A stretch of DNA of 64,000 bases from a virus (IMGVR_UViG_3300047564_002270:1-64000); one strand, 5' to 3'; positions 22,961 through 52,952 are shown, numbered from the stretch's first letter. Notes: generated from the letters alone by a model not told the origin. Translations and numbers: made by a program.

Positions 22961-23386
22961 ATGTTTAATCCAAACGCTTCGGCAGATACTAAGATTGCTG
23001 TTCTTGAGGAACGCTTATCTGCATACGAATTAATGCTTAAAAGAATAGACGAAGCCATTCAGCTAGTAAGTAAGACCAATCAAAATATTAGTAAAATGCT
23101 GGCAGTTCATGAGGAAAGGATTGAGCAGTGCCACAAAGCAGATGACTATATTGGAAGGTTAGTTGAAGAGTTAAAACTTGAGAATAAAGATCAGCACGAA
23201 GCAGTATCTGAAAGAATTGATAAGATAGAAGAGGATGTTCAAGAGATAGGGAAAATAAAGTGGATGACTGTTGGATGTGGGGTTCTTCTGGCAGTTCTTA
23301 CTACCGCATTTTCTACTCTTGCTTCAGGATGGTGGACACCATCTGAAATGCAAATGCACAATGAGAAAACATTTAGGTCTAGATAA
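22961..23386 (+). CDS. coiled-coil protein with C-terminal TM helix (paralogue of 39135..39557)
   Basis: late promoter; IAVLEERL..HEERIE..KWMTVG..STLASGWWTP. Confidence 0.7.
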   Translation: MFNPNASADTKIAVLEERLSAYELMLKRIDEAIQLVSKTNQNISKMLAVHEERIEQCHKADDYIGRLVEELKLENKDQHEAVSERIDKIEEDVQEIGKIKWMTVGCGVLLAVLTTAFSTLASGWWTPSEMQMHNEKTFRSR

Positions 23387-31798: not shown

Positions 31799-31875
31799 GT
31801 CTCGGTAGCTCAGATGGATAGAGCATCTGCCTTCTAAGCAGTTGGTCACAGGTTCGAGTCCTGTCCGAGACGCCA
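31799..31875 (+). tRNA. tRNA-Arg(UCU)
   Basis: cloverleaf; loop CTTCTAA; CCA encoded. Confidence 0.92.
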
Positions 31876-31948
31876 GGGGAATTAGCTCAGTTGGTAGAGC
31901 GCCTGCTTTGCAAGCAGGATGTCAGCGGTTCGAGTCCGCTATTCTCCA
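31876..31948 (+). tRNA. tRNA-Ala(UGC)
   Basis: cloverleaf; loop TTTGCAA; G3:U70 pair. Confidence 0.93.
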
Positions 31949-32001
31949 CTTGACTTTTTAATAAAAAAAGTCTTATAAATAAAATCACTTAGGTCGAAAC
32001 A

Positions 32002-32103
32002 ATGTCTTATCCAATTCCAACCAAACAGATTAGTAACCTTGATTGCCGCTATTGGCATATTGAGGGTGCTCCCCTGTTTGCGGATATGGAAAGACATATG
32101 TAA
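32002..32103 (+). CDS. 33-aa peptide MSYPIPTKQISNLDCRYWHIEGAPLFADMERHM
   Basis: late promoter TATAAATA upstream and a strong terminator downstream. Confidence 0.45.
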   Translation: MSYPIPTKQISNLDCRYWHIEGAPLFADMERHM

Positions 32104-32123
32104 GATGTTTAATCCATAAAAGC

Positions 32124-32163
32124 AAAAAAGGGGAGAGAAACCAAAAGTTTCCTCCCCTTTTTT
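32124..32163 (+). terminator. intrinsic terminator (potentially bidirectional)
   Basis: AAAAAAGGGGAG...CTCCCCTTTTTT. Confidence 0.75.
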
Positions 32164-32286
32164 GTTGCTTGTGACAGTTTCCTAAGTGTCCACCAACCTC
32201 CCCTCAGAGTTCAAATGGTGGTATTCTATACAAGTGGTTGAGAGACCACACCGAACATCGAAAACTGAATATTTACCACATTATAT

Positions 32287-32358
32287 GGGTCTGTAACTCA
32301 ACGGTAGAGTAACGGGCTTTTAACCTGGAAGTTGTGAGTTCGAATCTCACCAGACCCA
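32287..32358 (+). tRNA. tRNA-Lys(UUU)
   Basis: cloverleaf; loop CTTTTAA. Confidence 0.9.
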
Positions 32359-32362
32359 TCGT

Positions 32363-32444
32363 GGGAGGATTTCCGAGTGGCTAAAGGAACCTGACTGTAA
32401 ATCAGGCGGCTCTGCCTTCGCAGGTTCGAATCCTGCTCCTCCCA
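32363..32444 (+). tRNA. tRNA-Tyr(GUA)
   Basis: cloverleaf with variable arm; loop CTGTAAA. Confidence 0.92.
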
Positions 32445-32448
32445 CCTT

Positions 32449-32522
32449 GACCCATTAGTGTAGCGGTCTATCACGCCACCCTGTCACGGTGGAGATCACG
32501 GGTTCAAATCCCGTATGGGTCG
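32449..32522 (+). tRNA. tRNA-Asp(GUC)
   Basis: cloverleaf; loop CTGTCAC. Confidence 0.92.
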
Positions 32523-32663
32523 TTGAGAGTCAGTATTCTAACTCTCACGCATTCTTCAGAGGTTGCCAGTTTGCAGAAGAATGTTGTAGTAATAACTGGA
32601 ATTGGGGAGGGATTTCCGCCCGATGATTTTAAATCATCACTTTGCGGGATACCCCTCCCATCT

Positions 32664-32735
32664 GGTCCTATCGTCTAGTGGTGAGGACATCACTCTTTCA
32701 CAGTGAAGACACGGGTTCAAATCCCGTTAGGACTA
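32664..32735 (+). tRNA. tRNA-Glu(UUC)
   Basis: cloverleaf; loop CTTTCAC. Confidence 0.92.
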
Positions 32736-32738
32736 TAT

Positions 32739-32815
32739 CCAGATGTAGCTCAGTTTGGTAGAGCCCTCCGTTTGGGGCGGAGTTGTCGGAGGTTCAAATC
32801 CTTTCATCTGGACCA
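32739..32815 (+). tRNA. tRNA-Pro(UGG)
   Basis: cloverleaf; loop TTTGGGG; CCA encoded. Confidence 0.9.
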
Positions 32816-32888
32816 CGGGGAGTAGCTCAGTTGGTAGAGCACGGGATTGAAGATCCTGGTGTCGGCGGTTCAATTCCACCCTCTTCGA
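32816..32888 (+). tRNA. tRNA-Phe(GAA)
   Basis: cloverleaf; loop TTGAAGA. Confidence 0.88.
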
Positions 32889-32892
32889 CCTT

Positions 32893-32964
32893 GGAACCGT
32901 AGCTCAGTGGTAGAGCACTCGGCTGATAACCGAGCGGTCACAAGTTCAAATCTTGTCGGTTCCA
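32893..32964 (+). tRNA. tRNA-Ile(GAU)
   Basis: cloverleaf; loop CTGATAA. Confidence 0.92.
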
Positions 32965-32968
32965 CCTT

Positions 32969-33058
32969 GGAAGTGTGGCAGAGAGGTCTAATGCAGTGGA
33001 TTGCTAATCCGCCGATGTTCTTTAAGGGCATCCGTTGGTTCGAATCCAACCACTTCCG
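32969..33058 (+). tRNA. tRNA-Ser(GCU)
   Basis: long variable arm; loop TTGCTAA. Confidence 0.92.
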
Positions 33059-33143
33059 TTGGAAACATTCTAGAAAATAGAGCCGATATTTCCTCTATCG
33101 AGGTTTGAATGTTCTCCTTGACCGTTGCGGGTAAACGGTCTTT

Positions 33144-33215
33144 GGCAGTGTAGTTCAGTGGTAGAACAAGAGATTCATACCCTCTATGTCGGTAGTTCAA
33201 TTCTACCCACTGCCT
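33144..33215 (+). tRNA. tRNA-Met or Ile2 (CAU)
   Basis: cloverleaf; loop TTCATAC. Confidence 0.82.
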
Positions 33216-33216
33216 T

Positions 33217-33290
33217 GTGTCGTTAGCCTAGTGGTAAGGCAGTGGTTTGTGGAACCACCTAGATGGGTTCAATTCCCATACGACACCCCA
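33217..33290 (+). tRNA. tRNA-His(GUG)
   Basis: cloverleaf; loop TTGTGGA; C73 followed by CCA. Confidence 0.9.
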
Positions 33291-33336
33291 ATTCTACATT
33301 GTAGACCTTATAAATAAAATAAATAGGTCTACTAAA

Positions 33337-33771
33337 ATGAAGTGTAAGAATTGTGGAAAAGAGCATACTCCATCTAGAAATAGTATAGGAGTATATTGTG
33401 GAAACAAATGTCAACATGAGTTTCAAAAAAAACAAAGGATTTCTGATTGGTTATCTGGTGGGAAACTTCCAGGTAGGGGGGCATTAATTGAATACCTATC
33501 CGAAAATTTGGGTGGGTATAAATGTTCTACATGTGGTATTTCAGAATGGAATAATCTTCCTATTTCATTAGAAATAGACCACATAAATGGAAATCCACAT
33601 GATGATAGTTATGTAAATCTTCGTCTTATATGCCCCAATTGCCATTCCCAAACTCCTACTTTTAAAGGTAAAAACAAAGGGAATGGAAGAATTTCCTTAA
33701 TAGAAAGGAGGCGAGAAGATTATCATAGACAAAAACCGCCCGTTAAGCATTGTGGTGATGCAGCAGTTTAG
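33337..33771 (+). CDS. HNH homing endonuclease
   Basis: CKNC..CGNKC, CSTC, LEIDHINGN and NLRLICPNCHSQT. Confidence 0.9.
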   Translation: MKCKNCGKEHTPSRNSIGVYCGNKCQHEFQKKQRISDWLSGGKLPGRGALIEYLSENLGGYKCSTCGISEWNNLPISLEIDHINGNPHDDSYVNLRLICPNCHSQTPTFKGKNKGNGRISLIERRREDYHRQKPPVKHCGDAAV

Positions 33772-33808
33772 TAAACTGCAGAGAACAGTTCAATTCTGTT
33801 ATCGGGCT
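33738..33808 (+). tRNA. tRNA-Thr(AGU), atypical A34
   Basis: anticodon arm GCAGT-TTAGTAA-ACTGC; T arm AACAG-TTCAATT-CTGTT. Confidence 0.78.
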
Positions 33809-33880
33809 TCTGAGGTCGCCAAGCGGTAAGGCAGCGGGTTTTGGTCCCGCCATTCGTGGGTTCGAATCCTACCCTCAGAA
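33809..33880 (+). tRNA. tRNA-Gln(UUG)
   Basis: cloverleaf; loop TTTTGGT. Confidence 0.9.
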
Positions 33881-33883
33881 CCT

Positions 33884-33958
33884 GTTGGGTTGGTGCAATT
33901 GGTAGCATCTCGGTCTCCAAAACCGAAGATCAGAGTTCAAGTCTCTGGCCCTTCGCCA
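33884..33958 (+). tRNA. tRNA-Trp(CCA)
   Basis: loop CTCCAAA; CCA end; two U-U mismatches in the acceptor stem. Confidence 0.83.
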
Positions 33959-33960
33959 AT

Positions 33961-34032
33961 ACCCTGGTAACTCAGTGGAAGAGTGCTTCGCTACGAACGA
34001 AGAAGACGGGGGTTCAAATCCCTCTCAGGGTG
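33961..34032 (+). tRNA. tRNA-Arg(ACG)
   Basis: cloverleaf; loop CTACGAA. Confidence 0.9.
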
Positions 34033-34262
34033 CTTGACAAATTCTTAAGAGTTTGTTACTATATAAAGAGATAGAGGTTAAGTCCCTGTTACATCCTTAT
34101 GAGGTGTATCACACTTAATCCATCAAACGTAGGAAGTGCAATCCCTCTCGCTGGTTAATGCTAGATGAAGGATAAGGTGATTTTGTCCGCACATAGAAAT
34201 CCCTCCTACCACCACAAATATTGGTAGATACGCTTATAAATAATACTAGCAAGTTTACCATT

Positions 34263-34730
34263 ATGAGAAAAAGAGCAGATTTAGATAATAACAAAGAATA
34301 TATTATAAAATCTTTGTTGAGTGGAGAAAAATCTCCAACGGATGTCTGTGTTGAATTTAATTGCAAATACGATACTCTTCGTGCCAGAACAAAAGAGTGG
34401 ATTCCAAATTATAAACCAGACTATACTTCAAAGATAAGAACTTGTGGTGGACAAAATAAACATCTTTCTTTGGAACAATATTATCTACATAAAAATAAAA
34501 AATGTAAAAGGTCTATTTTACATAGATTACTTGTAGAAGAAAGGGGTGATTTTTGTTCTGAATGTGGAGTTTCTTCTACTTGGAATGGTAAAGATTTAAG
34601 ATTACAAGTTGACCATATAAATGGAGAATGTTATGATAATAGACCTTGTAATTTAAGATTACTTTGTCCAAACTGTCATTCGCAGACAGAAACATTCTCA
34701 TCAAAACAATCATTAGCGAGAGTGGTGTAA
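34263..34730 (+). CDS. HNH homing endonuclease
   Basis: CSECG, LQVDHINGE and NLRLLCPNCHSQT. Confidence 0.9.
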   Translation: MRKRADLDNNKEYIIKSLLSGEKSPTDVCVEFNCKYDTLRARTKEWIPNYKPDYTSKIRTCGGQNKHLSLEQYYLHKNKKCKRSILHRLLVEERGDFCSECGVSSTWNGKDLRLQVDHINGECYDNRPCNLRLLCPNCHSQTETFSSKQSLARVV

Positions 34731-34797
34731 TTGGTAGCCACGTTGCTCTTAGAAAGCAATGCTGAAAAGTGTAAGGGTTCGAGTCCCTTCTCTCGCA
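34716..34797 (+). tRNA. tRNA-Leu(UAG)
   Basis: variable arm; loop CTTAGAA. Confidence 0.9.
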
Positions 34798-34837
34798 CTT
34801 GACAATCAAACTAAAATAGTTTATGATTGTCTTATAA

Positions 34838-34909
34838 GCGGAGTTAGTTCAGCGGTAGAACGCTATCCTTCCAAGTTAGATGTCGTCGGTTCGATTCCGA
34901 TACTCCGCT
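34838..34909 (+). tRNA. tRNA-Gly(UCC)
   Basis: cloverleaf; loop CTTCCAA. Confidence 0.92.
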
Positions 34910-34929
34910 CTGAACCTTCGGGTTCTTAT

Positions 34930-35002
34930 TGCCCTATAGCTCAATTGGCAGAGCACGGAGCTGTTAACTCTGGGGTTCTTGGTTCGAGTCCAAGTGGGGC
35001 AG
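34930..35002 (+). tRNA. tRNA-Asn(GUU)
   Basis: cloverleaf; loop CTGTTAA. Confidence 0.92.
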
Positions 35003-35156
35003 TTGGAAGGTCTGGAAATTTTCGGATCTTCCTCTAAATCCTAAAGTCTAGAATTTAGGTCGGGGACTTGATCACCCCCGTTCGGATAGGTAAGGAAAGT
35101 AAAAGGAGCATGGGCACCCTCTTTGCGGGGGAGATACCGCACCTGCCTTATCCTTA

Positions 35157-35231
35157 ACCTCTGGTAGTCTATTGGTAAGGACAGGCGGACAACGCACTTG
35201 GAAACTAGGTTCGATTCCTAGACAGAGGTCA
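35157..35231 (+). ncRNA. tRNA-like RNA with non-canonical anticodon arm
   Basis: acceptor ACCTCTG/CAGAGGT, D arm GTC..GAC and T arm CTAGG-TTCGATT-CCTAG, but only GCG-GACAA-CGC as anticodon arm. Confidence 0.65.
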
Positions 35232-35232
35232 C

Positions 35233-35304
35233 GGGCGATTAACTCAGCGGTAGAGTGCCTCCTTTACACGGAGATGGTCACTGGTTCGAATCCAGTATCG
35301 CCCA
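35233..35304 (+). tRNA. tRNA-Val(UAC)
   Basis: cloverleaf; loop TTTACAC. Confidence 0.92.
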
Positions 35305-35313
35305 TAAGAAATG

Positions 35314-35352
35314 AAAAAACCTCAGGAGCGGCCACCCCTGAGGTTTTATTTT
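35314..35352. terminator. bidirectional intrinsic terminator
   Basis: AAAAAACCTCAGG...CCTGAGGTTTTATTTT. Confidence 0.8.
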
Positions 35353-35378
35353 GACCACACACGTCCCGTTGAGGACAT
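35314..35378 (-). ncRNA. candidate late small RNA complementary to the downstream leader
   Basis: minus-strand TATAAATA at 35389-35382, 5' hairpin GTCC-TCAACG-GGAC, GACGTGTGTG seed, terminator ending in T6. Confidence 0.5.
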
Positions 35379-35437
35379 ACGTATTTATACAATTTGAAAC
35401 AAATTAATCGTTTAAATTATTAAGGAGTTATAAAGTA

Positions 35438-35745
35438 TATAAATAAAATCAAGAGGAGCAATCCTCAGAGTTAGAGACAGCAGACGTATTACTCAGTGAT
35501 TCCTTTTTTGGTTCACTCATTAATGCTTCATTGGGTCTCCTAGATTTTCTTAGGAAAGTCTAAATCACACACGTCACGTATCTCTAACAGGAGATATGTT
35601 CAATCCCGAAGAGAAGTATTCCCAGAGGACTCGGCCAAAGTTCTCTGAGGCAAGGATTCTTCTGGCAATATGTCAGGGAAGGATTGTGCATATCTCTCCA
35701 AAATTACTTATATACACTTTCTTTCCCTTACGGAGAATAAAAAAA
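35438..35745 (+). promoter_or_regulatory. late promoter plus ~300-nt structured 5' leader
   Basis: TATAAATA at 35438-35445; nested stems GTTAGAGA/TCTCTAAC, GACGT/ACGTC, GAGATATG/CATATCTC and CAGAGGACT/AGTTCTCTG. Confidence 0.6.
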
Positions 35746-36648
35746 ATGGCTGATGTAACCGCTTACATGGGTGTAGACCCAGCACTTGCAGATATTCGCA
35801 GAGAAGGTTCTGTAGAGCGTGGAGAAATCCGCTACGATGTTGCTACTCGTGCTGGCGACATTCGTAGAGAAACCGCAGAAGGTATTAGCGAAGTTCGTTA
35901 TGACGTTGCTACCCGCACTGCTGACAACCGTTATGCTAATGCAATCGGTCAAAGCGACATTCGTAAAGAGCAAGCAATCGGTTTTGGTGATACCAGATAC
36001 GCTATTGCTGAGCACTCAGAAGCAACCAACCGTGACGTTTTAACAAGTGGTTTCAATACCAATGTTAAAGTAGACGAAGCTGCTGACAAAATTCAGCAAA
36101 GAGCTGCTGACTTCTACATTGCTGGTCAAGCAAGAGATTTTGATAACTCCCGTGATCTTGCTGCTCTGAAGGCATTCACAGATATGTCTTCTCAAAAACT
36201 CAGCAGTGAGATCCTTCTTGCTACTGAGAAGGCTGCTACTGCTAATGCTCTTGCGTCTGAAAAAGTTGCTGCTGCTGTAGCACTTGAGTCAGCAAGATTA
36301 GGCACTGCTGTAGCACTGGGTCAGTCACAAATCAGCAAAGAAGTTGCTGAAAGTAAGTATGACCTCAGTAAGCAAATGGCTTATGAGAATGAGAAGACCC
36401 GTGACCTCATCAACGACCTCAAGAACTCTGACCTTAACCGTCAGCTCATTGAGCGTAATAGTGATATTAACTATTATCGCCAAGATTGCAATCGTTGGGA
36501 AGGTCTGTATGGCAATGGCCAGTTTGCTCAACTTGCTTCACAAATCAATGCTCTGCAGTCAAACTTAGCAGAAACTCGCCAGGGTCTCTATAACTTTGGA
36601 ACCATGGCTGGTGTAGGTCAATCCTCAAACCAAAATCAGGTTCGCTGA
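35746..36648 (+). CDS. 300-aa hendecad-repeat coiled-coil protein
   Basis: GGAG RBS before ATG 35746; 11-residue repeats DIRRE../EIRYD.. Confidence 0.8.
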   Translation: MADVTAYMGVDPALADIRREGSVERGEIRYDVATRAGDIRRETAEGISEVRYDVATRTADNRYANAIGQSDIRKEQAIGFGDTRYAIAEHSEATNRDVLTSGFNTNVKVDEAADKIQQRAADFYIAGQARDFDNSRDLAALKAFTDMSSQKLSSEILLATEKAATANALASEKVAAAVALESARLGTAVALGQSQISKEVAESKYDLSKQMAYENEKTRDLINDLKNSDLNRQLIERNSDINYYRQDCNRWEGLYGNGQFAQLASQINALQSNLAETRQGLYNFGTMAGVGQSSNQNQVR

Positions 36649-36707
36649 TTATTCATAGTTAAACTTGGGAGGGAAATATTCCCTCCCTTATTACAGGAGA
36701 ATTAACT

Positions 36708-37313
36708 ATGTCTATGGATGATTATGATAGACAACTTATAGAGCTAAATGCTCTTCTTACTGCTGCCAGAAGTCACGGAACCCAAGAGCAGGTGGATTTT
36801 GCTTTGCAAAATATTCAAAAGGCCCTGGGAAATGAGACTCCAAACGGTGGAACAAACATTTCTAATATTACTGTAAATGTCGAAGATGATGATTGCGATG
36901 ATGTGTGCCCACCTGGTCCTCCTGGGCCACCTGGGCCTCCTGGTCCTCCAGGTGAACCAGGACCTCCCGGTCCTCCAGGTGAGCAGGGACCTCCTGGTCC
37001 TCAAGGACCGATAGGAATTTGCAGTTGTAAATGCTCCACACGCCTTGTAACTACCAATTACACGGCAACCTGTGATGATTACTATATTGGAGTTAAATCT
37101 GATGGTCCAGTGACGATTTCACTGCCAGAAGAATGTACCGATTGCTGCGAATTAATTATCAAAGCAGAAATGGGACCTCCTCTTGGAAATAGGAAAGTTA
37201 CTGTTCAGGCAACAGGTGCCAGTTATATTGATGGCACAGACAAATATGTTATAGAAGTCCCGTATCAATCTGTGAATATTATTTGTAGAGATGGAGATTG
37301 GCACATCATCTAA
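36708..37313 (+). CDS. Cys-rich collagen-like protein
   Basis: 12 G-X-Y triplets (7 GPP) flanked by CDDVC and CSCKC; C-terminal domain shared with the next gene. Confidence 0.85.
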
Positions 37314-37322
37314 GGAGAAAAA

Positions 37323-37934
37323 ATGGCTTACTTAGCACAACCTACCTCAAAGACAGAATATGGTGTTGTGGGTGTTGGTAGTTTTATCAATGTTCTTGAT
37401 GGGTTTATTTCTTTAGAACAAGATGTATCACCTACTAGTGTTGTATCTTTTTCTCAGGTTAATGTTGGAAATAAAGATGTAGTTACTTCAGTAAATCCAG
37501 TTGCTGGAGATGGCATCTCAATTACCGATTTAGTTTCGATAGGAAACACAGTTGGATTTGCGGTTTCAAATATAGGTGTTCTATCTTTATCTGCCGGTTC
37601 TGGAATTTCAATTTCCAATACCACCGGAAATATTACAATCTCGGCATCTGGTGCAGACCTGATTGCTACGATTGGAGTTACTGGTGCTTATACTGCAACT
37701 GCAAGTGATGAATATATTGGCGTTTTCAGTGCCTCTGCAGTCACAATTACTCTTCCCATTGGAATTACTGGAAGAGTTTATACAATTAAAGATGAATATG
37801 GTCAGGGATCTGGAAAGATTACAATTAAACCTTCTGGAGCAGAAAAGGTTGATAATTCAAATACTTATGTAATATCGGTGCCGTATCAATCGGTATCGGT
37901 GGTATTTCGTGGCGGACAATGGAGAATTATTTAA
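37323..37934 (+). CDS. fibre-like structural protein, paralogous C-terminal domain to 36708
   Basis: AGDGISI/AGSGISI repeats; YTAT..YIGV..TLP..IK.E..VPYQSV..W.II. Confidence 0.75.
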   Translation: MAYLAQPTSKTEYGVVGVGSFINVLDGFISLEQDVSPTSVVSFSQVNVGNKDVVTSVNPVAGDGISITDLVSIGNTVGFAVSNIGVLSLSAGSGISISNTTGNITISASGADLIATIGVTGAYTATASDEYIGVFSASAVTITLPIGITGRVYTIKDEYGQGSGKITIKPSGAEKVDNSNTYVISVPYQSVSVVFRGGQWRII

Positions 37935-38680
37935 ATCTAAACTTTAAAGTCAGAAAATCACCTTCGGAAGAAAGTGATCTAATCTATAAGAGCGATAATA
38001 CAAAATGTATTCAAGAAATCGCTGACCTAAGACAGTGGGATACTCTTGTAGAAAATCAGGGAACCTTAAGTGCTTGTAGTGGTTCTGCCATTACAAGTGC
38101 CTATGAACTGATGGTAAAGCAATTGTATCCAGAACAGTCTGTGGAATTAAGTGATTTGTTTGTTTATTACAATGCTCGCTTGAATGAAGGAACAGTCAAT
38201 CGGGATATTGGAATTTACGTTAAGACTGGTATGAGTGTTCTAAAAGAATATGGTGTTTGCTCTGAAGATCTATGGCCTTATGATTTAGAAATGTGGGATG
38301 ATAAACCTCCCAATATTGCTTATGATGATGCTGAAAAAAGAAAAATTTTACAGTATCAAAAAGTAACCAGCACATATTATCTCACTGAAGTGTTGAGTGA
38401 CAACAAACCAGTTGTTTTCGGTATGGAAATATATGATAGTTTTATGGAATTAGATAACCGTATTTCGACTGTGCCATTCCCTTCACGTAAGGAAAAAAGT
38501 CAAGGTGGACACGCAATGTGTATGGTTGGTTACGACCTAGAAAAAAGACTTTTTCTTGCGAAGAATAGTTTTGGAACCAATTGGGGAATGGAAGGGTATT
38601 GTTGGGTCCCTTTTGATTACCTTAAACAGGAAGGATACGATGCGTGGATATTTGATATTCCACCCCAAGTAGGAACCTAA
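37919..38680 (+). CDS. papain-like (C1 family) cysteine protease
   Basis: NQGTLSAC (Gln, Cys), GGHAMCMVGY (His), KNSFGTNWG (Asn). Confidence 0.9.
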   Translation: MENYLNLNFKVRKSPSEESDLIYKSDNTKCIQEIADLRQWDTLVENQGTLSACSGSAITSAYELMVKQLYPEQSVELSDLFVYYNARLNEGTVNRDIGIYVKTGMSVLKEYGVCSEDLWPYDLEMWDDKPPNIAYDDAEKRKILQYQKVTSTYYLTEVLSDNKPVVFGMEIYDSFMELDNRISTVPFPSRKEKSQGGHAMCMVGYDLEKRLFLAKNSFGTNWGMEGYCWVPFDYLKQEGYDAWIFDIPPQVGT

Positions 38681-38681
38681 A

Positions 38682-38831
38682 ATGTACGACTATTACCGAC
38701 CCTATGACTACTACCGTCCGTATGGATATGGATATCATAGGTATTATGATTCTTGTTGTTATAGACCTTGGTATTATGGACCATATTCGTATAGTTCATA
38801 TCCTTTTTATCCTTACAGACCTTATTACTAA
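38682..38831 (+). CDS. 49-aa Tyr-rich peptide (21 Tyr)
   Basis: hand translation MYDYYRPYDYYRPYGYGYHRYYDSCCYRPWYYGPYSYSSYPFYPYRPYY; AGGA upstream. Confidence 0.7.
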   Translation: MYDYYRPYDYYRPYGYGYHRYYDSCCYRPWYYGPYSYSSYPFYPYRPYY

Positions 38832-38851
38832 CAATTTAAATGGAGGAAATT

Positions 38852-39121
38852 ATGTTCACCCCCTACTATCCCTATAATAGGAATTATTATCAACCTTATA
38901 TGCCATATAGGCCCTATAGTCCTTATAATGGTTATTATCCAATATCTTCTTATAACTACATGAGAAATCAAATAGCTCAGAACTATCAGAGCATTTATAA
39001 CAGTGGATATATGACTGATGTCATTCAAAGTTCTGATATTAATCAAGTTGGTGCTGGATGTACAGTACCAATTCCTGGAGAACCTCCAGTTCCCCCGATA
39101 GAACCAATTCCAGTTATTTGA
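38852..39121 (+). CDS. Tyr/Pro-rich small protein
   Basis: GGAGG RBS; PYYPY..PY repeats; Pro-rich C-terminus. Confidence 0.7.
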   Translation: MFTPYYPYNRNYYQPYMPYRPYSPYNGYYPISSYNYMRNQIAQNYQSIYNSGYMTDVIQSSDINQVGAGCTVPIPGEPPVPPIEPIPVI

Positions 39122-39134
39122 AAGGTGATCTATT

Positions 39135-39557
39135 ATGGGATTTGGTATAACGAATAAACAAATTGCAGTTCTTGAATCTAGATTTCAATTTTATGAAAAT
39201 CTATCAAAAGAAATGTTGTACAAGTTAGAAAAAGCAGTAGATAGGATTACCGAGAGTAATCATACTGTTGCTATTATTCTTGAACGGCATGAAAATAGAT
39301 TAGACAGTACCGCACAATCAACTGAGTTAATTATCAAAATGATTGATGAGGTGCGTAAATCTGTTGATAAAAAAATAAATTTAGTTGAAAAAAAGATTGA
39401 AGATGTTTCTAGAATAAAATGGATGATTGTTGGTGTTGGAATGGCATCGGCAATTCTAGCAACTTCAATTTCTACTTTGGCATCTGGATGGTGGACTCCA
39501 GGTGAATTGGGATACAAAATGCAACACAAGTACGTTCCAACAGAAAAATCAAAATAA
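39135..39557 (+). CDS. coiled-coil protein with C-terminal TM helix (paralogue of 22961..23386)
   Basis: QIAVLESRF..HENRLD..KWMIVG..STLASGWWTP. Confidence 0.72.
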   Translation: MGFGITNKQIAVLESRFQFYENLSKEMLYKLEKAVDRITESNHTVAIILERHENRLDSTAQSTELIIKMIDEVRKSVDKKINLVEKKIEDVSRIKWMIVGVGMASAILATSISTLASGWWTPGELGYKMQHKYVPTEKSK

Positions 39558-39603
39558 CGTAGCACCATCAGTTGCTTGATATAAATAATAACAAAAAAGT
39601 ATA

Positions 39604-40038
39604 ATGGAAACACTGTACAAACTATTGAGTGATGCTCAGTCATCACTCTTTGTTCTTTTTCATAAGACCTGGGTATTTCATTGGAATGTAGTTGGCAAAG
39701 ATTTCACACAACTACATCAACTGTTTGGTGGTCAATACGAAGCAATGTTTAGTGAGATTGATAGACTTTCAGAACATATGAGATACTTGAATGTTAAACC
39801 TTTGAGTTCTCTTTCAAGAATGCTTGAAGTAACTCAAATTCAAGAAGCAGCAAGTTCTACAACAGCAGACAAAATGCTTTCAGAACTTCTGGAAAATAAT
39901 GAAAAGTTCTGTGAAATGTTAAAAGAAATTTCCGAAGAAGCAGAAGAGCAAAAGTCTTATGCCACTGCTAATCTGGTTCAAGATCTAATGGAGTCTCACG
40001 GTAAATTTATTTGGCAATTAAGAGCACACTCCCAATGA
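39604..40038 (+). CDS. dps: Dps/ferritin-like DNA protection protein
   Basis: FHWNVVG.DF.QLHQLF..QY..IDRLSE; HGKFIWQL. Confidence 0.9.
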   Translation: METLYKLLSDAQSSLFVLFHKTWVFHWNVVGKDFTQLHQLFGGQYEAMFSEIDRLSEHMRYLNVKPLSSLSRMLEVTQIQEAASSTTADKMLSELLENNEKFCEMLKEISEEAEEQKSYATANLVQDLMESHGKFIWQLRAHSQ

Positions 40039-40190
40039 AAAAAACATTTAAACAATTTAAACAAACAGCATATGCTGGTTCAAAACCTCATACTGTGTAT
40101 AACCCTACTACTGGTAAAAAGACACATATAGAGGCAGGAAAAGCAATGGCAAAACGTTCTTCATCAAGTGCTGGTGGAGACGGGCAATAA
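40035..40190 (+). CDS. 51-aa basic peptide
   Basis: MKKTFKQFKQ.. resembles a capsid-targeting N-terminus. Confidence 0.5.
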   Translation: MKKTFKQFKQTAYAGSKPHTVYNPTTGKKTHIEAGKAMAKRSSSSAGGDGQ

Positions 40191-40216
40191 ATAAACACTT
40201 ATAAGATGATAAAAAA

Positions 40217-40891: not shown

Positions 40892-40978
40892 GGAAGGTCA
40901 ATCCGATTGGCGACGGAACCGCTCTTGAAAAGCGTTGAGGTGTTAAAGCCCTTGGGAGTTCGACTCTCCCACCTTCCG
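40892..40978 (+). tRNA. tRNA-Ser(UGA)
   Basis: long variable arm; loop CTTGAAA. Confidence 0.9.
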
Positions 40979-41087
40979 TTTTACTTAAGATTTAACAATT
41001 TTTTGAACTATGTTACAGTATGAACACAAACTTGACTTCTGAGACATATAAGTTATTATAACTAATACAATCAATCAAAAATTTCAT

Positions 41088-41237
41088 ATGGATCAACACA
41101 CCTATGATAATTGGGTGAAGATCAAAGAAACCTTTGAAACTTCTGGTAATACAAATAATATGTTTTACAAGAGAGCAGTTGAAATTGTAAAAACCAGAAG
41201 AGATCCTTTAGCAAAATTCCTTGGCGATGAAAAATGA
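41088..41237 (+). CDS. 49-aa conserved cyanobacterial/cyanophage-type small protein
   Basis: MDQHTYDNWVKIKETFE.SG.T.NMFYKRA. Confidence 0.6.
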   Translation: MDQHTYDNWVKIKETFETSGNTNNMFYKRAVEIVKTRRDPLAKFLGDEK

Positions 41238-41437
41238 TGGAACCAGGTGATGAATTTATAAGTCGTGAAGAAGTTCAGGAGATGATTGATGCTGCTATCA
41301 GAAGACACAACCGTAATGCTTCTATCATTAGTATGTGCGTCGGTTGGGTGGTTCTTTCTTTATTTGCTGAGGGACTTTTGAGATTGATAGGAGTTATTCC
41401 ACCTTTAATGCCATGGCTTAAAATCACTTTAAACTAA
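41234..41437 (+). CDS. small membrane protein
   Basis: EVQEMIDAAIRRHNRNA followed by a TM segment. Confidence 0.6.
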   Translation: MMEPGDEFISREEVQEMIDAAIRRHNRNASIISMCVGWVVLSLFAEGLLRLIGVIPPLMPWLKITLN

Positions 41438-41550
41438 TGGTTCAAATTTCAGAAAAAGATTTAAAAGAATTACAACAAAGAGTCCTTCAGCAAAAAATGG
41501 ATGAACTCTTTGAAGAACCTTCAACTTACGAGGATGAAGAAGATGAGTAA
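41437..41550 (+). CDS. 37-aa acidic peptide
   Basis: TAATG-coupled to the previous ORF; ELFEEPSTYEDE. Confidence 0.5.
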   Translation: MVQISEKDLKELQQRVLQQKMDELFEEPSTYEDEEDE

Positions 41551-41615
41551 ATTAATTTATACCTCAATGACTATTTTCGGTCTTACAGGTCTTTTTATTT
41601 TCTGGAGTCTCAATC

Positions 41616-41816
41616 ATGCATATCTTCGATAAACAAAGATATGCTTTTGCAATGTCTGCTTTTGTGAGAATGCATGGGTATTCTGTTTCTCATAATCATG
41701 ATATTAGACAGTTTTGTATTGAATGGTCTGGTTGGGATGTTTATGCTCCTTTAACGGGGCTTGATGAGGTTGATCAGTATTTTTATTACGAATATAAGAA
41801 TTGGAGAGGGAGATGA
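41616..41816 (+). CDS. hypothetical protein
   Basis: 66-aa ORF. Confidence 0.5.
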   Translation: MHIFDKQRYAFAMSAFVRMHGYSVSHNHDIRQFCIEWSGWDVYAPLTGLDEVDQYFYYEYKNWRGR

Positions 41817-41937
41817 TATTTTATATTGTAGAAACACTTGCAGCGAGTCCAGTTTGGTTGTTTATGTGTGGTATGGGGTTGACAGTGGTTCCTTTTATTG
41901 GTATAATGTTCATACACCGAAATAAATAAACGTGTAA

Positions 41938-42011
41938 CGGGGTGTAGCGCAGTTTGGTAGCGCATCCGCTTTGGGAGCGGGAGGTCGTAGGTTCGAATCC
42001 TATCACCCCGA
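41938..42011 (+). tRNA. tRNA-Pro(UGG), second copy
   Basis: cloverleaf; loop TTTGGGA; TTGACA/TATAAT promoter upstream. Confidence 0.92.
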
Positions 42012-42048
42012 TTGTCTTATGACATTTAGACATTATTGGCTTGAATTT

Positions 42049-42624
42049 ATGAGTGAACATAAAATTGCTAAATCTGCTGGACACTATGAGGAAGTTATTC
42101 CAGATGAGTTGATGGACTTGATTGTCAAGGAAGTAGAAAGTATTGATTATGAAGTTTTTTCAGAAGCCAGTATTGGAGATTCTGGAAGTTCTATTGTGGA
42201 AACTAAAACAAGAAATTCCAAGATCACTTGGTGGTATGAAGAACATTGGGTTTGTTCTATTTTTTCTCATTACTTTAATAAGGCAAATAGAGAGTTCTGG
42301 GAATATGATTTGACTTACTTGTCAGGTATTCAGGTGACGAGTTATGATGTTGGAGAGCATTATGGGTGGCACGCAGACTACGGAAATCCAGATGATTCAA
42401 ATCATACCCGTAAATTAAGTGCCACTTTACTTGTAAATGATCCTTCTGAATATGAAGGTGGAGATCTTGAATTTATTGATTATCATGGAAGAACTCTTGT
42501 TGCCCCTAGGGTGAAAGGAACTATGATTATCTTTGATTCTAGAATTCCTCATAGAGTAACTCCTGTAACTAAAGGAAAAAGAATTTCTTTAGTTTCTTGG
42601 ATGCTTGGTCCTAAACTTCGATAA
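42049..42624 (+). CDS. 2OG-Fe(II) oxygenase
   Basis: WHAD, RKLS, YEGG, HRVTPV and RISLVSW. Confidence 0.88.
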   Translation: MSEHKIAKSAGHYEEVIPDELMDLIVKEVESIDYEVFSEASIGDSGSSIVETKTRNSKITWWYEEHWVCSIFSHYFNKANREFWEYDLTYLSGIQVTSYDVGEHYGWHADYGNPDDSNHTRKLSATLLVNDPSEYEGGDLEFIDYHGRTLVAPRVKGTMIIFDSRIPHRVTPVTKGKRISLVSWMLGPKLR

Positions 42625-42645
42625 ATTATAAATTAAGTTGTAGAT

Positions 42646-42873
42646 ATGGAAAACATTTCACCCACGATGGAAAAATTTAACGTAGAATATTTCCAGCAAA
42701 ATTTTGACGAAATCATGGAAAGAGTTGATAATGGTGAGACCTTTATTGTTCAAAGTGAATATGGGAATGCTATGTTAGTTCCATATAAAGATGTTGTAGA
42801 TGTGTTTGAAGACTCTAGAGTTTCTGAAGAAGATTTTACAAGACTTTACAGAGACCACGAAGAAGCCCCTTGA
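42646..42873 (+). CDS. Phd/YefM antitoxin-like protein (no adjacent toxin seen)
   Basis: FQQNFDEIMERVDNGETFIV..AMLVP pattern. Confidence 0.55.
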   Translation: MENISPTMEKFNVEYFQQNFDEIMERVDNGETFIVQSEYGNAMLVPYKDVVDVFEDSRVSEEDFTRLYRDHEEAP

Positions 42874-42912
42874 CAAAGCGTTTCAGATCCGCTATTATAG
42901 ATCTGAACCTAA

Positions 42913-43000
42913 GCGAGTGAGACTTGGTAGTCAGAGGAGTCTTATAAACTCTTTCCGCCAGATTAGCGGCTTTGACCTGGTTCGAATCCAGGCACTCGTA
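42913..43000 (+). tRNA. atypical tRNA with UAU anticodon, long variable arm and 4-nt D-loop
   Basis: acceptor GCGAGTG/CACTCGT; D arm GACT-TGGT-AGTC; anticodon arm GGAGT-CTTATAA-ACTCT; T arm CCTGG-TTCGAAT-CCAGG. Confidence 0.75.
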
Positions 43001-43046
43001 TTACTCATAACTTTCATAAATAGTTATGAGTTATTTAAAACTTAAT

Positions 43047-43421
43047 ATGCCCAGAAAAAGAAAAACTTCTGCCGATTGTGATATAATACGAGAGTATCAA
43101 CGCAATTGGTTAAGAGATAAACTTAAAAGCGACCCAGAATACAGGGAACGACATTACGCAAACCGACAAAATAGAGCAAAACAAAATAAAGAAAATCTCA
43201 CAAAGTTAAAAGAAAATATTTGTTGCTCTGCTTGTGGTGAATATCATCCAGCATGTTGTATGGATTATCATCATTTAGACCCAAATATAAAAGAAAAAGG
43301 TGTATCACAAATGATACAGGGAAATTCTTGGAAAAAAATTCAAGAAGAAATTTCTAAATGTATTTTAGTTTGTGCAAATTGTCATAGAAAAATTCACGAA
43401 GGACTTATTACGCTCGTTTAG
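43047..43421 (+). CDS. HNH homing endonuclease
   Basis: CSACG..DYHHLDP..KCILVCANCHRKIH. Confidence 0.88.
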   Translation: MPRKRKTSADCDIIREYQRNWLRDKLKSDPEYRERHYANRQNRAKQNKENLTKLKENICCSACGEYHPACCMDYHHLDPNIKEKGVSQMIQGNSWKKIQEEISKCILVCANCHRKIHEGLITLV

Positions 43422-43485
43422 CCATCTGGAGAAGGCAGCGTTCTCATAAAGCGCCATCAGGAGAGTTCGATCCTCTCAACGAGCA
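43412..43485 (+). tRNA. tRNA-Met or Ile2 (CAU)
   Basis: cloverleaf; loop CTCATAA. Confidence 0.85.
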
Positions 43486-51349: not shown

Positions 51350-51491
51350 CAAATCAATTATTCCACCTTATACTAAATAAGTGAGCGTGACGAAACCTCA
51401 ACTACTCGTTTGGTTACGTGAACTAAATCGGAAGATAGTCGGTCTTCCATTCATCCGCAGGTTAACTCTGCGAGAAAATATAGAGATACTT

Positions 51492-52952
51492 ATGTTTAAA
51501 TCCGCAATCGCAGCAACTCTAGCTGCAACCCCACTAGTCGCTGGTGCTGCGTTCGCAGAACCATTTGGTCAATATGGACCATATGTGGAATCACAAGTTA
51601 CTAGTATTAGTCAATTCTCTGATGTGCAACCAACTGATTGGGCATATCAGGCACTCAGCAACCTCGTAGAGCGTTATGGCTGCGTTGCTGGTTATCCTAA
51701 TGGCACCTATGGCGGTGGCAAGGCAATGACCCGCTATGAGGCAGCAGCACTTCTCAATTCTTGCTTGGATCGTGTGACGGAAGTTACTGATGAACTCAAG
51801 CGTCTTATGAGTGAGTTCTCTAATGAACTTGCTGTCATCAAAGGTCGTGTAGACGGTCTTGAAGCAAAGGTTGGTGAACTTGAGGCGACTCAATTCTCTA
51901 CTACTACCAAACTGAAAGGTGAAGCAACATTCGTTCTTGGTGGCGTTCCTGGTTATGATACCAAGAGTGATGTCAGCACTCGCACAGCATTTAACTATGA
52001 TGTTCGTCTGAACTTTGATACTTCATTCACTGGTAAGGATCTGCTTCGCACTCGTCTGCGTTCTTCTAACTTCAGCACTGATCCGTTTGGTTCTTCTTCA
52101 TCGCTGTTTAAACTTGACAAGGCAGACAACTTCTCAAGTGATAATGGAGATAATGTAGTCCTTGATCGTCTGTATTATTCATTCCCTGCGTTCAACAACA
52201 CCACTACTCTGACTGCTGGTGCTAAGGTTCGTAATACCGAAATGGCGTGGGTTCCTTCGGCATATAAGTCTGAAATTCTTGACTTCTTTGCCGTTGCTGG
52301 TGCTCCTGGTGTCTATAACAAGGCAACTGGTGCTGGTTTTGGTGCTCTGTATTCTGGTAAGAGTGGATTTGTTGCTGGTGTAAACTATGTTGCCCAAGAT
52401 GGAGACAACTCTGAAACTGGAGTATTTGATGAAACTGGTGCTCTGAATACTATGGTTCAACTTGGATATCGTGGTAAAAACTATGGTATCGGACTTGGTT
52501 ATCGTTATGGTACTCAGGGAACTCGTGTTCGTACTTATAACGGTCTAGATGGTGCCTCTGGTACTCTTGTTCCTGGACAAACTTCTAGTGGTTACTCTGC
52601 AAACGCTTACTGGCAACCTGAGAAGTCGGGTATTGTTCCTTCAATCACCGTTGGTTATGGTTGGAACACTGTAAGTGGCACTGAGAGTGCTGCTACTGAT
52701 AGTCAATCCTGGATGGCAGGTCTCCAGTGGTCTGATGTATTTGCCAAGGGTAACTCTGCAGGTATCGCTGTAGGTCAAGCACCCACTGGTGAAGAACTTG
52801 AGAAGGCAACAATGCTTGAAATTTTCTACAAGTATCAGGTGTCTGACAACATCAGCATCACTCCTGCGATCTTCTACGCTAGTGACAACCAGCGTCTGAA
52901 TGATAATGCCTCCAAGTGGGGTGGTGTAATCCAGACCAAGTTTACCTTCTGA
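51492..52952 (+). CDS. cyanobacterial outer-membrane porin (SLH + OprB/Som type)
   Basis: signal peptide; SDVQPTDWAYQAL..TRYEAAALL; QFSTTTKLKG; terminal Phe. Confidence 0.9.
   Translation: MFKSAIAATLAATPLVAGAAFAEPFGQYGPYVESQVTSISQFSDVQPTDWAYQALSNLVERYGCVAGYPNGTYGGGKAMTRYEAAALLNSCLDRVTEVTDELKRLMSEFSNELAVIKGRVDGLEAKVGELEATQFSTTTKLKGEATFVLGGVPGYDTKSDVSTRTAFNYDVRLNFDTSFTGKDLLRTRLRSSNFSTDPFGSSSSLFKLDKADNFSSDNGDNVVLDRLYYSFPAFNNTTTLTAGAKVRNTEMAWVPSAYKSEILDFFAVAGAPGVYNKATGAGFGALYSGKSGFVAGVNYVAQDGDNSETGVFDETGALNTMVQLGYRGKNYGIGLGYRYGTQGTRVRTYNGLDGASGTLVPGQTSSGYSANAYWQPEKSGIVPSITVGYGWNTVSGTESAATDSQSWMAGLQWSDVFAKGNSAGIAVGQAPTGEELEKATMLEIFYKYQVSDNISITPAIFYASDNQRLNDNASKWGGVIQTKFTF

Follow-up and report, generated by a model that had tools for sequence, protein, structure and literature searches.

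A late gene cassette combining fibre parts, a papain-family protease and tyrosine-rich peptides in a T4-like freshwater cyanophage

The first 64,000 nucleotides (nt) of the viral record IMGVR_UViG_3300047564_002270, hereafter the window, contain a compact plus-strand cassette of genes, numbered here g1 to g7, at positions 35438-39557. The cassette combines known fibre parts with uncharacterised add-ons and may be a variant of phage accessory fibre genes. Judged from sequence and predicted fold, there is an even chance that it functions as an accessory virion fibre module of a T4-like freshwater cyanophage. We favour this reading because of the fold of a C-terminal knob domain, a rod-like protein and a collagen stalk, the length polymorphism of rod and stalk, a late promoter motif, cytoplasmic assembly, and the tail-fibre-like neighbour of a related gene pair in the contig L048. 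The protease and the peptides of extreme Tyr content that complete the cassette may serve to trim, glue, cap or cross-link the fibre.

The source record is a 159-kb IMG/VR virus, estimated to be 76% complete. The family-B DNA polymerase that it encodes shares 78% identity with gp43 from the Synechococcus phages S-SM2 and SynMITS9220M01, and the window also encodes a DnaB-type helicase, NrdA/NrdB, 25 tRNA genes and an OprB/SLH porin. This gene content identifies the virus as a T4-like cyanomyovirus. The metagenome runs that contain the stretch are nearly all from freshwater or lakes.

Results and discussion

Organization of the cassette

The promoter motif TATAAATA (Table 1) occurs 11 times in the window, 10 of these on the coding strand, and its TAAATA core is invariant and identically positioned in all 13 aligned loci. 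A preliminary description of this DNA had placed the motif at 35438 ahead of seven packed genes of particular compositions. All of these elements are present in the sequence and the packing stands, but g1 begins 300 nt downstream of the motif, and the gap is occupied by a conserved structured leader. In the window, a single nucleotide separates the g4 stop codon from the start of g5, and in the 258-kb contig L004 the two genes overlap; no terminator-like site with a credible stem was found in the g1-g7 interval. RNA-library contigs cover positions from 35461 onwards and none covers 35300-35460, while contigs from three libraries cover relatives of the leader through g5. Both observations are weak evidence: depth cannot rank the genes and DNA carry-over is possible.

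Table 1 Features of the cassette and its downstream neighbour, in window coordinates
Feature	Position	Strand	Basis
Late promoter motif TATAAATA, T4-type	35438-35445	+	Exact match
Conserved structured 5' leader RNA	35446-35745	+	Alignment of 16 distinct loci, covariation
g1, predicted hendecad-repeat rod, 300 aa	35746-36648	+	Start MADV as in orthologues
g2, N-terminal helix, Cys-flanked collagen and knob, 201 aa	36708-37313	+	Pfam Collagen, E 2e-7
g3, predicted beta-structured fibre protein with knob, optional, 203 aa	37323-37934	+	AlphaFold2 model and fold search
g4, predicted C1A (papain-family) cysteine protease, 253 aa	37919-38680	+	Peptidase_C1, E 6e-13
g5, 49-aa peptide with 21 Tyr (43%) and 2 Cys	38682-38831	+	Composition, orthologues
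g6, Tyr/Pro-rich protein	38852-39121 (89 aa) or from 38840 (93 aa)	+	Open reading frame, GGAGG
g7, DUF7201 coiled coil with C-terminal hydrophobic/membrane segment, 140 aa	39135-39557	+	PF23831 E 4e-25, phrog_451
dps	39604-40038	+	Ferritin-like domain, E 1e-21

The knob, the collagen stalk and the rod

The last ~90 residues of g2 and g3 align with 27-33% identity overall and share 24 invariant columns. In the AlphaFold2 model of g3, confidence is high only across residues 113-203, which comprise this knob (predicted local distance difference test score, pLDDT, ~88-90). The modelled knob superposes on the gp10-like (XD) domain of CBA120 TSP4 (7rej_B; Z 12.1, root-mean-square deviation (rmsd) 1.8 Å, 89 residues), on the middle domain of T4 gp9 (1qex_A; Z 10.3) and on T4 gp10 (5iv5_AC; Z 10.0), with rmsd values of 1.8-2.0 Å over 86-89 residues for the three. 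It also matches baseplate proteins of Klebsiella phage KP1, a tailspike C-terminus and the Pa223 capsid spike, and all matches of this type fall at Z 10-12 and 1.7-2.6 Å over 82-90 residues. By these models, the g2/g3 knob is a beta-sandwich of the T4 gp9/gp10 type. Entries in BFVD show the same domain at the end of many uncultured-phage proteins annotated as collagen-repeat or gp9/gp10, and many of these join collagen repeats to the knob as g2 does. A feature search of the Atlas led to phage fibre families; profiles of g3 and g2 gave nothing useful against PDB sequences.

In proteins of the gp9/gp10 type, the domain forms part of a trimer and provides an attachment site or branching point. 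The cassette knob shares the fold of T4 gp9 and gp10, the N-terminal region of CBA120 TSP4, and the KP1 and Pa223 proteins. However, it has no detectable sequence similarity to them, is located C-terminally on proteins of ~200 amino acids (aa) that are encoded outside the structural gene block, and in g2 carries about five extra Cys. The g3 orthologues are always 203 aa long and metagenomes hold more than 1000 relatives. The gene is optional: L004, L013, L017, L025 and L029 lack it, and overall it is missing from roughly one locus in two.

With 31 bits against PF01391 (cut-off 27.2), g2 qualifies as a collagen-repeat protein. The window copy contains 12 Gly-X-Y triplets, mostly GPP, and 10 Cys, arranged as a pair before the collagen, a C-x-C-x-C cluster after it and about five more in the knob. 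Across loci the stalk ranges from 4 to 20 triplets. Its Gly-X-Y repeats match 16 PHROGs of collagen-like phage tail fibres (among them PHROGs 5073, 366 and 18350), but g2 is much shorter than those fibres, has Cys clusters on either side of its collagen stretch and is in every case preceded by a g1-type gene. Collagen-repeat proteins are not unusual in this phage, since the same genome encodes other large ones outside the window, with open frames of 300, 771 and 917 aa (regions G000:C1 113999-116449 and 148026-150032); none of these three carries the g2/g3 knob.

A 2-oxoglutarate-Fe(II) oxygenase of the prolyl-hydroxylase type (PF13640, 64 bits) is encoded at 41971-42624, 2.4 kb downstream of the cassette, and could hydroxylate the (GPP)n stalk of g2. 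We rejected this prolyl 4-hydroxylase-like enzyme as a collagen-modifying partner of the cassette; it lies near the cassette in no other locus.

The g1 sequence shows self-similarity peaks at lags of 11, 22 and 33 residues. Its AlphaFold2 model, based on a 55-sequence alignment, is one uninterrupted helix of 266 residues (15-280; mean pLDDT 80), from which we predict a helical rod ~40 nm long whose length varies with repeat number. The N- and C-terminal peptides are conserved, whereas the 22-residue repeats near the N-terminus vary in number from locus to locus. In relatives represented by metagenome and RNA-library contigs, 259-262 nt of the repeat region (window 35804-36067) are skipped, so the natural rod is polymorphic in length by ~87 residues. 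Such variation in rod and stalk is usual for exposed fibres.

g1 belongs to a large family that forms 150 clusters at 50% identity. The family has no curated Pfam relative, and its profile gave only chance-level coiled-coil matches among PDB sequences. Like T4 fibritin (wac), a trimeric coiled-coil whisker, g1 would be a late helical rod tens of nm long with short conserved ends. In contrast to fibritin, its periodicity is 11 rather than 7, it has no foldon, and no sequence, Pfam or PDB match connects the two; we do not classify g1 as a fibritin. Three other leads on g1 were discarded. An upstream in-frame ATG at 35596 was dismissed as the start, as the orthologues begin with MADV. A resemblance to the N-terminal helix of g2 (an 'SQI.E' string) reached z of at most 3 in 10 loci and is not significant. 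A tblastn match to P47 of Hamiltonella phage APSE-1 (DUF1640, E 6e-4) falls among overlapping opposite-strand annotations in a replication region and is uninformative.

Conservation and modular history

IMG/VR was scanned with g1, which gave 29 loci, and with g4, which gave 14; all window proteins were then compared with these loci by tblastn. The order g1-g2-(g3)-g4-g5-g6 recurs in ~18 distinct uncultured viral contigs at 45-96% identity. Only g1, g2, g4, g5 and g6 are always together, and g3, g7 and dps vary. In L004, the five-gene version forms a plus-strand island between minus-strand genes. The preliminary description had outlined a cassette of seven genes; a co-conserved, discrete unit behind the late motif is borne out, but it is smaller, as only some half of the loci contain g3 and the presence of g7 and dps varies.

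The unit appears to have two layers. Four distant contigs carry a g1-like gene directly followed by a g2-like gene, with neither protease nor Tyr peptides, and the T4-like variants L023 and L024 have g1 and g2 alone. The distant g2-like genes encode an N-terminal helix and a knob, with or without collagen repeats, and in every case, the distant contigs included, a g2-like gene follows a g1-like one. In L048, the pair lies directly 3' of a giant gene whose product, longer than 1595 aa, has a match to the PHROG 'short tail fiber protein' (E 1e-28). Where the protease is found, both Tyr peptides and the structured leader accompany it, and where it is lacking they are lacking too. We read g1 plus g2, the pair of rod and knob, as an older core; the protease and Tyr peptides are a lineage-specific add-on set. 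In two distant contigs, a gene with a GerE/LuxR-type helix-turn-helix adjoins the g1-like/g2-like pair (L043:3754-4434 and L046:3635-4324).

A second link within the cassette connects g1 to g6. In each of the nine loci compared, the C-terminal 30-35 residues of g1 have a homologous stretch midway along g6, and local alignment of the two proteins of each locus gives z of 7-18 relative to shuffles. A hidden Markov model of the motif (core N-[FYS]-G-x-M) matches only g1 and g6 genome-wide, and lineage-specific residues of the motif shift in parallel in the two proteins. A complex prediction of three g2 knobs with the C-terminal 65 residues of g1 (score 0.21, mark 0.32) gave no answer either way.

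These observations bear on the idea that the genes are unrelated accessories that share a hypervariable island by chance. In favour of it, the region is plastic, with g3, g7 and dps present in some loci and missing in others, and putative homing endonucleases and tRNA genes surround the cassette. Against this stand the strict gene order, the tight spacing (down to the single nucleotide between g4 and g5 and their overlap in L004), the motif common to g1 and g6, the knob common to g2 and g3, and the single promoter motif with its leader. We regard co-travel as largely refuted and highly improbable.

Outside uncultured viruses, relatives are scarce. A megablast search of the cassette against 50,697 phage records gave nothing usable. 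The same records were queried by tblastn with g1, g3, two distant relatives of g1 and the knob of g2; matches were absent or marginal, the marginal ones being APSE-1 (E 6e-4) and a second match at E 2e-3. When 185,579 prokaryote genomes were scanned for patterns from the g1 and g3 profiles, no relative was confirmed within the limits of the patterns used. The preliminary description knew of no such system in cyanophages, and our literature search (cyanophages with collagen-like, tyrosine-rich or papain-like features) likewise found no description of the module.

The protease

g4 scores 49.9 bits against PF00112 (cut-off 20.7), which places it in the C1A family. The catalytic residues Gln47, Cys53, His198 and Asn216 are in register, and the catalytic Gln/Cys/His/Asn are retained in 13 of 14 orthologues. 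From its sequence, g4 is an intact C1A protease, as had been suggested earlier. At E≤0.1, Pfam matches are to papain-type families only, and the protein is not of the YabG type. Its closest solved relative is 3OIS_A (E 1e-43, profile residues 9-239), listed in the PDB table as 'Cysteine protease', which we take to be xylellain of Xylella fastidiosa. g4 has the same catalytic residues as this enzyme, but lacks the first ~38 residues of its chain, is phage-encoded and is tightly spaced with a gene for a Tyr-rich peptide. No I29 prodomain was matched in Pfam, and the ~35 residues before the start of the mature domain contain no hydrophobic leader; most classical members of the family possess both an inhibitory prodomain and a secretion signal, but their lack in g4 has no bearing on membership of the C1A catalytic family. 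A C-terminal tail conserved among g4 orthologues is missing from the window copy.

In L019 (10136-10723), an internal deletion removes the catalytic Cys region of the protease and the remaining cassette is intact. As the cassette is kept despite this loss, the protease may be dispensable or decaying in that locus.

The protease could also act outside the cell. As an adsorption aid, the fibre would carry the protease and sticky Tyr peptides, and the enzyme would digest the S-layer, pili or a surface glycoprotein of the host, a protein counterpart of the polysaccharide depolymerase tailspike. Phage CBA120 mounts enzymatic tailspikes on a module with the gp9/gp10-type knob, the protease is intact, with conservation in 13 of the 14 loci, and an Alicyclobacillus phage homologue of g4 is annotated 'endolysin', although this is annotation only. 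However, no domain for attachment to a fibre can be recognised in the protease, the window copy lacks the conserved C-terminal tail, and an oxidising extracellular milieu disfavours a free-thiol protease. We consider this role very unlikely.

The tyrosine-rich peptides and the comparison with coats

The g5 orthologues, found in 13 loci, are 42-53 aa long, with 40-53% Tyr, 11-20% Pro and 8-15% Arg and always two or three Cys, which agrees with the Tyr- and Cys-rich compositions noted earlier. Pfam and PHROG searches with g5 matched no known family. For g6, the likelier start is at 38852, behind GGAGG, and the metagenome gene call gives the same 89 aa. The protein is predicted to be disordered (Atlas pLDDT 0.30), and an Atlas search gave no usable relatives.

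The N-termini of g1-g6, as read from sequence, have no evident signal peptide or hydrophobic leader, and assembly is for this reason taken to be cytoplasmic. A layer around the infected cell, one of the two locations considered in the preliminary description, is therefore unlikely.

The same description had likened the cassette to a spore-coat or exosporium kit. The ingredient list does resemble that of the Bacillus exosporium and spore coat (BclA, ExsY/CotY, CotC/CotG-type proteins, YabG) in its collagen-like protein with a globular end, its small Cys- and Tyr-rich proteins, its cysteine protease and its cytoplasmic assembly. This is a likeness of composition only: none of the cassette proteins has a homologue among coat or exosporium proteins, the protease is C1A rather than YabG, and the cassette encodes no transglutaminase or oxidase. 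The earlier interpretation is borne out only in part. It had been set against the possibility of ordinary tail-fibre or baseplate parts, which now holds in part, as two of the proteins are built from phage fibre parts. In a check for the C1q/TNF fold of BclA, the best knob matches were all phage gp9/gp10-type and no C1q/TNF entry was among the matches listed; one giant-virus 'BclB C-terminal domain-containing' protein in BFVD aligns with the knob over 92 residues. BclA also has an N-terminal exosporium-targeting motif, whereas the N-terminus of g2 is a conserved helix of a different kind, although no formal motif search was made.

In a virion form of the earlier idea, the proteins would build a dense layer around the capsid or the whole particle instead of discrete fibres, matured by the protease, cross-linked through disulfides and/or dityrosine and protective against ultraviolet light, grazers or enzymes. 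The conserved Tyr and Cys content of g5 would suit it, as would the joint gain and loss of protease, Tyr peptides and leader and an assembly that is cytoplasmic like that of spore coats. The Cys count of g2 is 8-10 in loci with the protease and Tyr peptides and 3-5 in those without, a comparison of few, non-independent cases that is confounded by ancestry. In addition to the missing homology to coat and exosporium proteins, several points argue against a coat. The knob belongs to a domain type of phage fibres, other phages have the rod and knob pair without Tyr peptides or protease, and L019 lost the catalytic Cys region of its protease and otherwise kept the cassette. The cassette has no oxidase gene and no tyrosinase was found in the 159-kb record, a negative of little weight as the control search also matched nowhere; peroxidases and transglutaminases were not searched. 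Overall, we think such a coat unlikely.

Eukaryotic secreted materials offer a further comparison. Mussel foot proteins 3 and 5 are peptides of ~45-50 residues rich in Tyr, Arg, Gly and Pro, and cnidarian minicollagens are short collagen helices with Cys-rich flanking ends. The cassette peptides and g2 resemble these by compositional analogy only, without homology. For mussel-type chemistry, no enzyme forming 3,4-dihydroxyphenylalanine was found by the same tyrosinase search, to which the same limit applies.

The structured leader

The leader between promoter and g1, a structured RNA of ~250-300 nt with strong covariation, may be a new cis-regulatory RNA. Its helices include those at alignment columns 187-198/275-286 and 208-224/249-265. 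When 65 proposed pairs are examined in 16 sequences, 96.2% of the cells are paired, compared with 39-51% for slid partners. Pairs that change on both sides number 19, against 3-9 with slid partners, and none of 500 shuffles reaches 19. The leader has no match in Rfam 15 at E≤1, where only the tRNA-Val was found in 35200-40200, and a covariance model of its 3' domain matches the 159-kb genome once, at the cassette leader itself. L023 and L024, the variants without a protease, lack the leader, as do the distant loci. In its last small hairpin, UUCC pairs with GGAG of the g1 ribosome-binding site.

The 10-nt string CACACACGTC occurs at 35356-35366, just 3' of the tRNA-Val terminator, and again at 35566-35576, where it sits within a hairpin that is a variable insertion in the leader. 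Among the five leaders with this insertion, four retain CACACACG.

A possible assembly and its alternatives

Under the accessory-fibre reading, a hair or whisker would be assembled in the cytoplasm late in infection and most likely be mounted on the virion. Its core would consist of the g1 rod and the short collagen stalk of g2 ending in the gp9/gp10-type knob, and g3 would be a second fibre with the same knob. All three proteins would be trimers. The knob may serve for trimerisation and docking, the role it has in T4 gp10 and CBA120 TSP4, and so join the pieces to each other or to the particle, and g1 and g6 might compete for or share one docking site via their common motif. The protease may trim one or more cassette proteins, and the Tyr/Pro/Arg-rich g5 and g6 may coat, glue or cap the fibre, possibly through Tyr-Pro stacking on the collagen stalk and post-lysis disulfides with the Cys-rich g2. 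The leader would set the timing or yield of translation. An extended version of this scheme, in which the rod and collagen-knob scaffold, loaded with peptides of 40-50% Tyr that have a docking motif in common with the rod, forms a new proteinaceous material on or around the virion, matured by the protease, hardened through Cys and Tyr after lysis and gated by a leader that possibly senses a late-infection signal, seems improbable to us.

Several points weigh against an accessory fibre. In T4-like genomes, the cassette occupies the tRNA/accessory region, outside the structural gene block. The gp9/gp10-type sandwich seen in the models indicates kinship of fold but not of function. At 76-96% identity across loci, g3 is unusually invariant, unlike a receptor-binding tip. 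No cultured phage searched carries cassette genes, except for distant homologues of the protease. To our knowledge, a protease and peptides of 40-50% Tyr have no precedent in phage fibre modules, and the roles given to them above are for this reason conjecture.

The products could instead stay inside the cell, with the rod and the disordered Tyr/Arg-rich peptides forming a scaffold or condensate and the protease acting on host or phage proteins. The lack of export signals, the disorder and composition of g5 and g6, the long g1 helix with its 11-residue periodicity and the position outside the structural block would all fit, and the reducing cytoplasm would keep a prodomain-free C1A protease active. 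However, a gp9/gp10-type knob and a collagen stalk are typical of virion appendages, the core pair in L048 follows a giant tail-fibre-like gene, and the length polymorphism of rod and stalk fits exposed structures. A purely intracellular role is in our judgement doubtful and unlikely.

Neighbouring genes

g7 and dps lie outside the conserved unit and are neighbours, not core. g7 scores 88.7 bits against PF23831 (DUF7201; cut-off 27) and is present only in some of the loci that contain g3. A paralogue at 22961-23386 (DUF7201, 118.9 bits) has its own copy of TATAAATA, and the membrane-segment regions of the two phrog_451 paralogues are 75% identical in DNA. The next TATAAATA copy after that of the cassette, at 39580, immediately precedes dps, which thus has its own late-promoter motif.

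The tRNA genes of the window lie within 31799-35304 and 40892-43485, interleaved with open reading frames that look like HNH endonucleases (33247-33771 and 34221-34730). The porin gene, at 51381-52952, is of the cyanobacterial type, with an OprB and an SLH domain, and is probably a host-derived outer-membrane gene.

Implications

The encounter of a phage with its host, and its survival outside the host, are decided by accessory fibres; the phages of freshwater picocyanobacteria are abundant and barely cultured. The cassette is widespread, and three of its six proteins belong to no described family. We found its combination of fibre parts, a protease and extremely Tyr-rich peptides described for no phage. 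If the Tyr peptides are structural, they would represent a new biomaterial motif, and if the leader is a sensor, it would be a new phage cis-regulatory RNA. Even if the cassette encodes only an extra whisker, it would still serve as a marker for this phage group, in which it might help to determine host range or particle stability.

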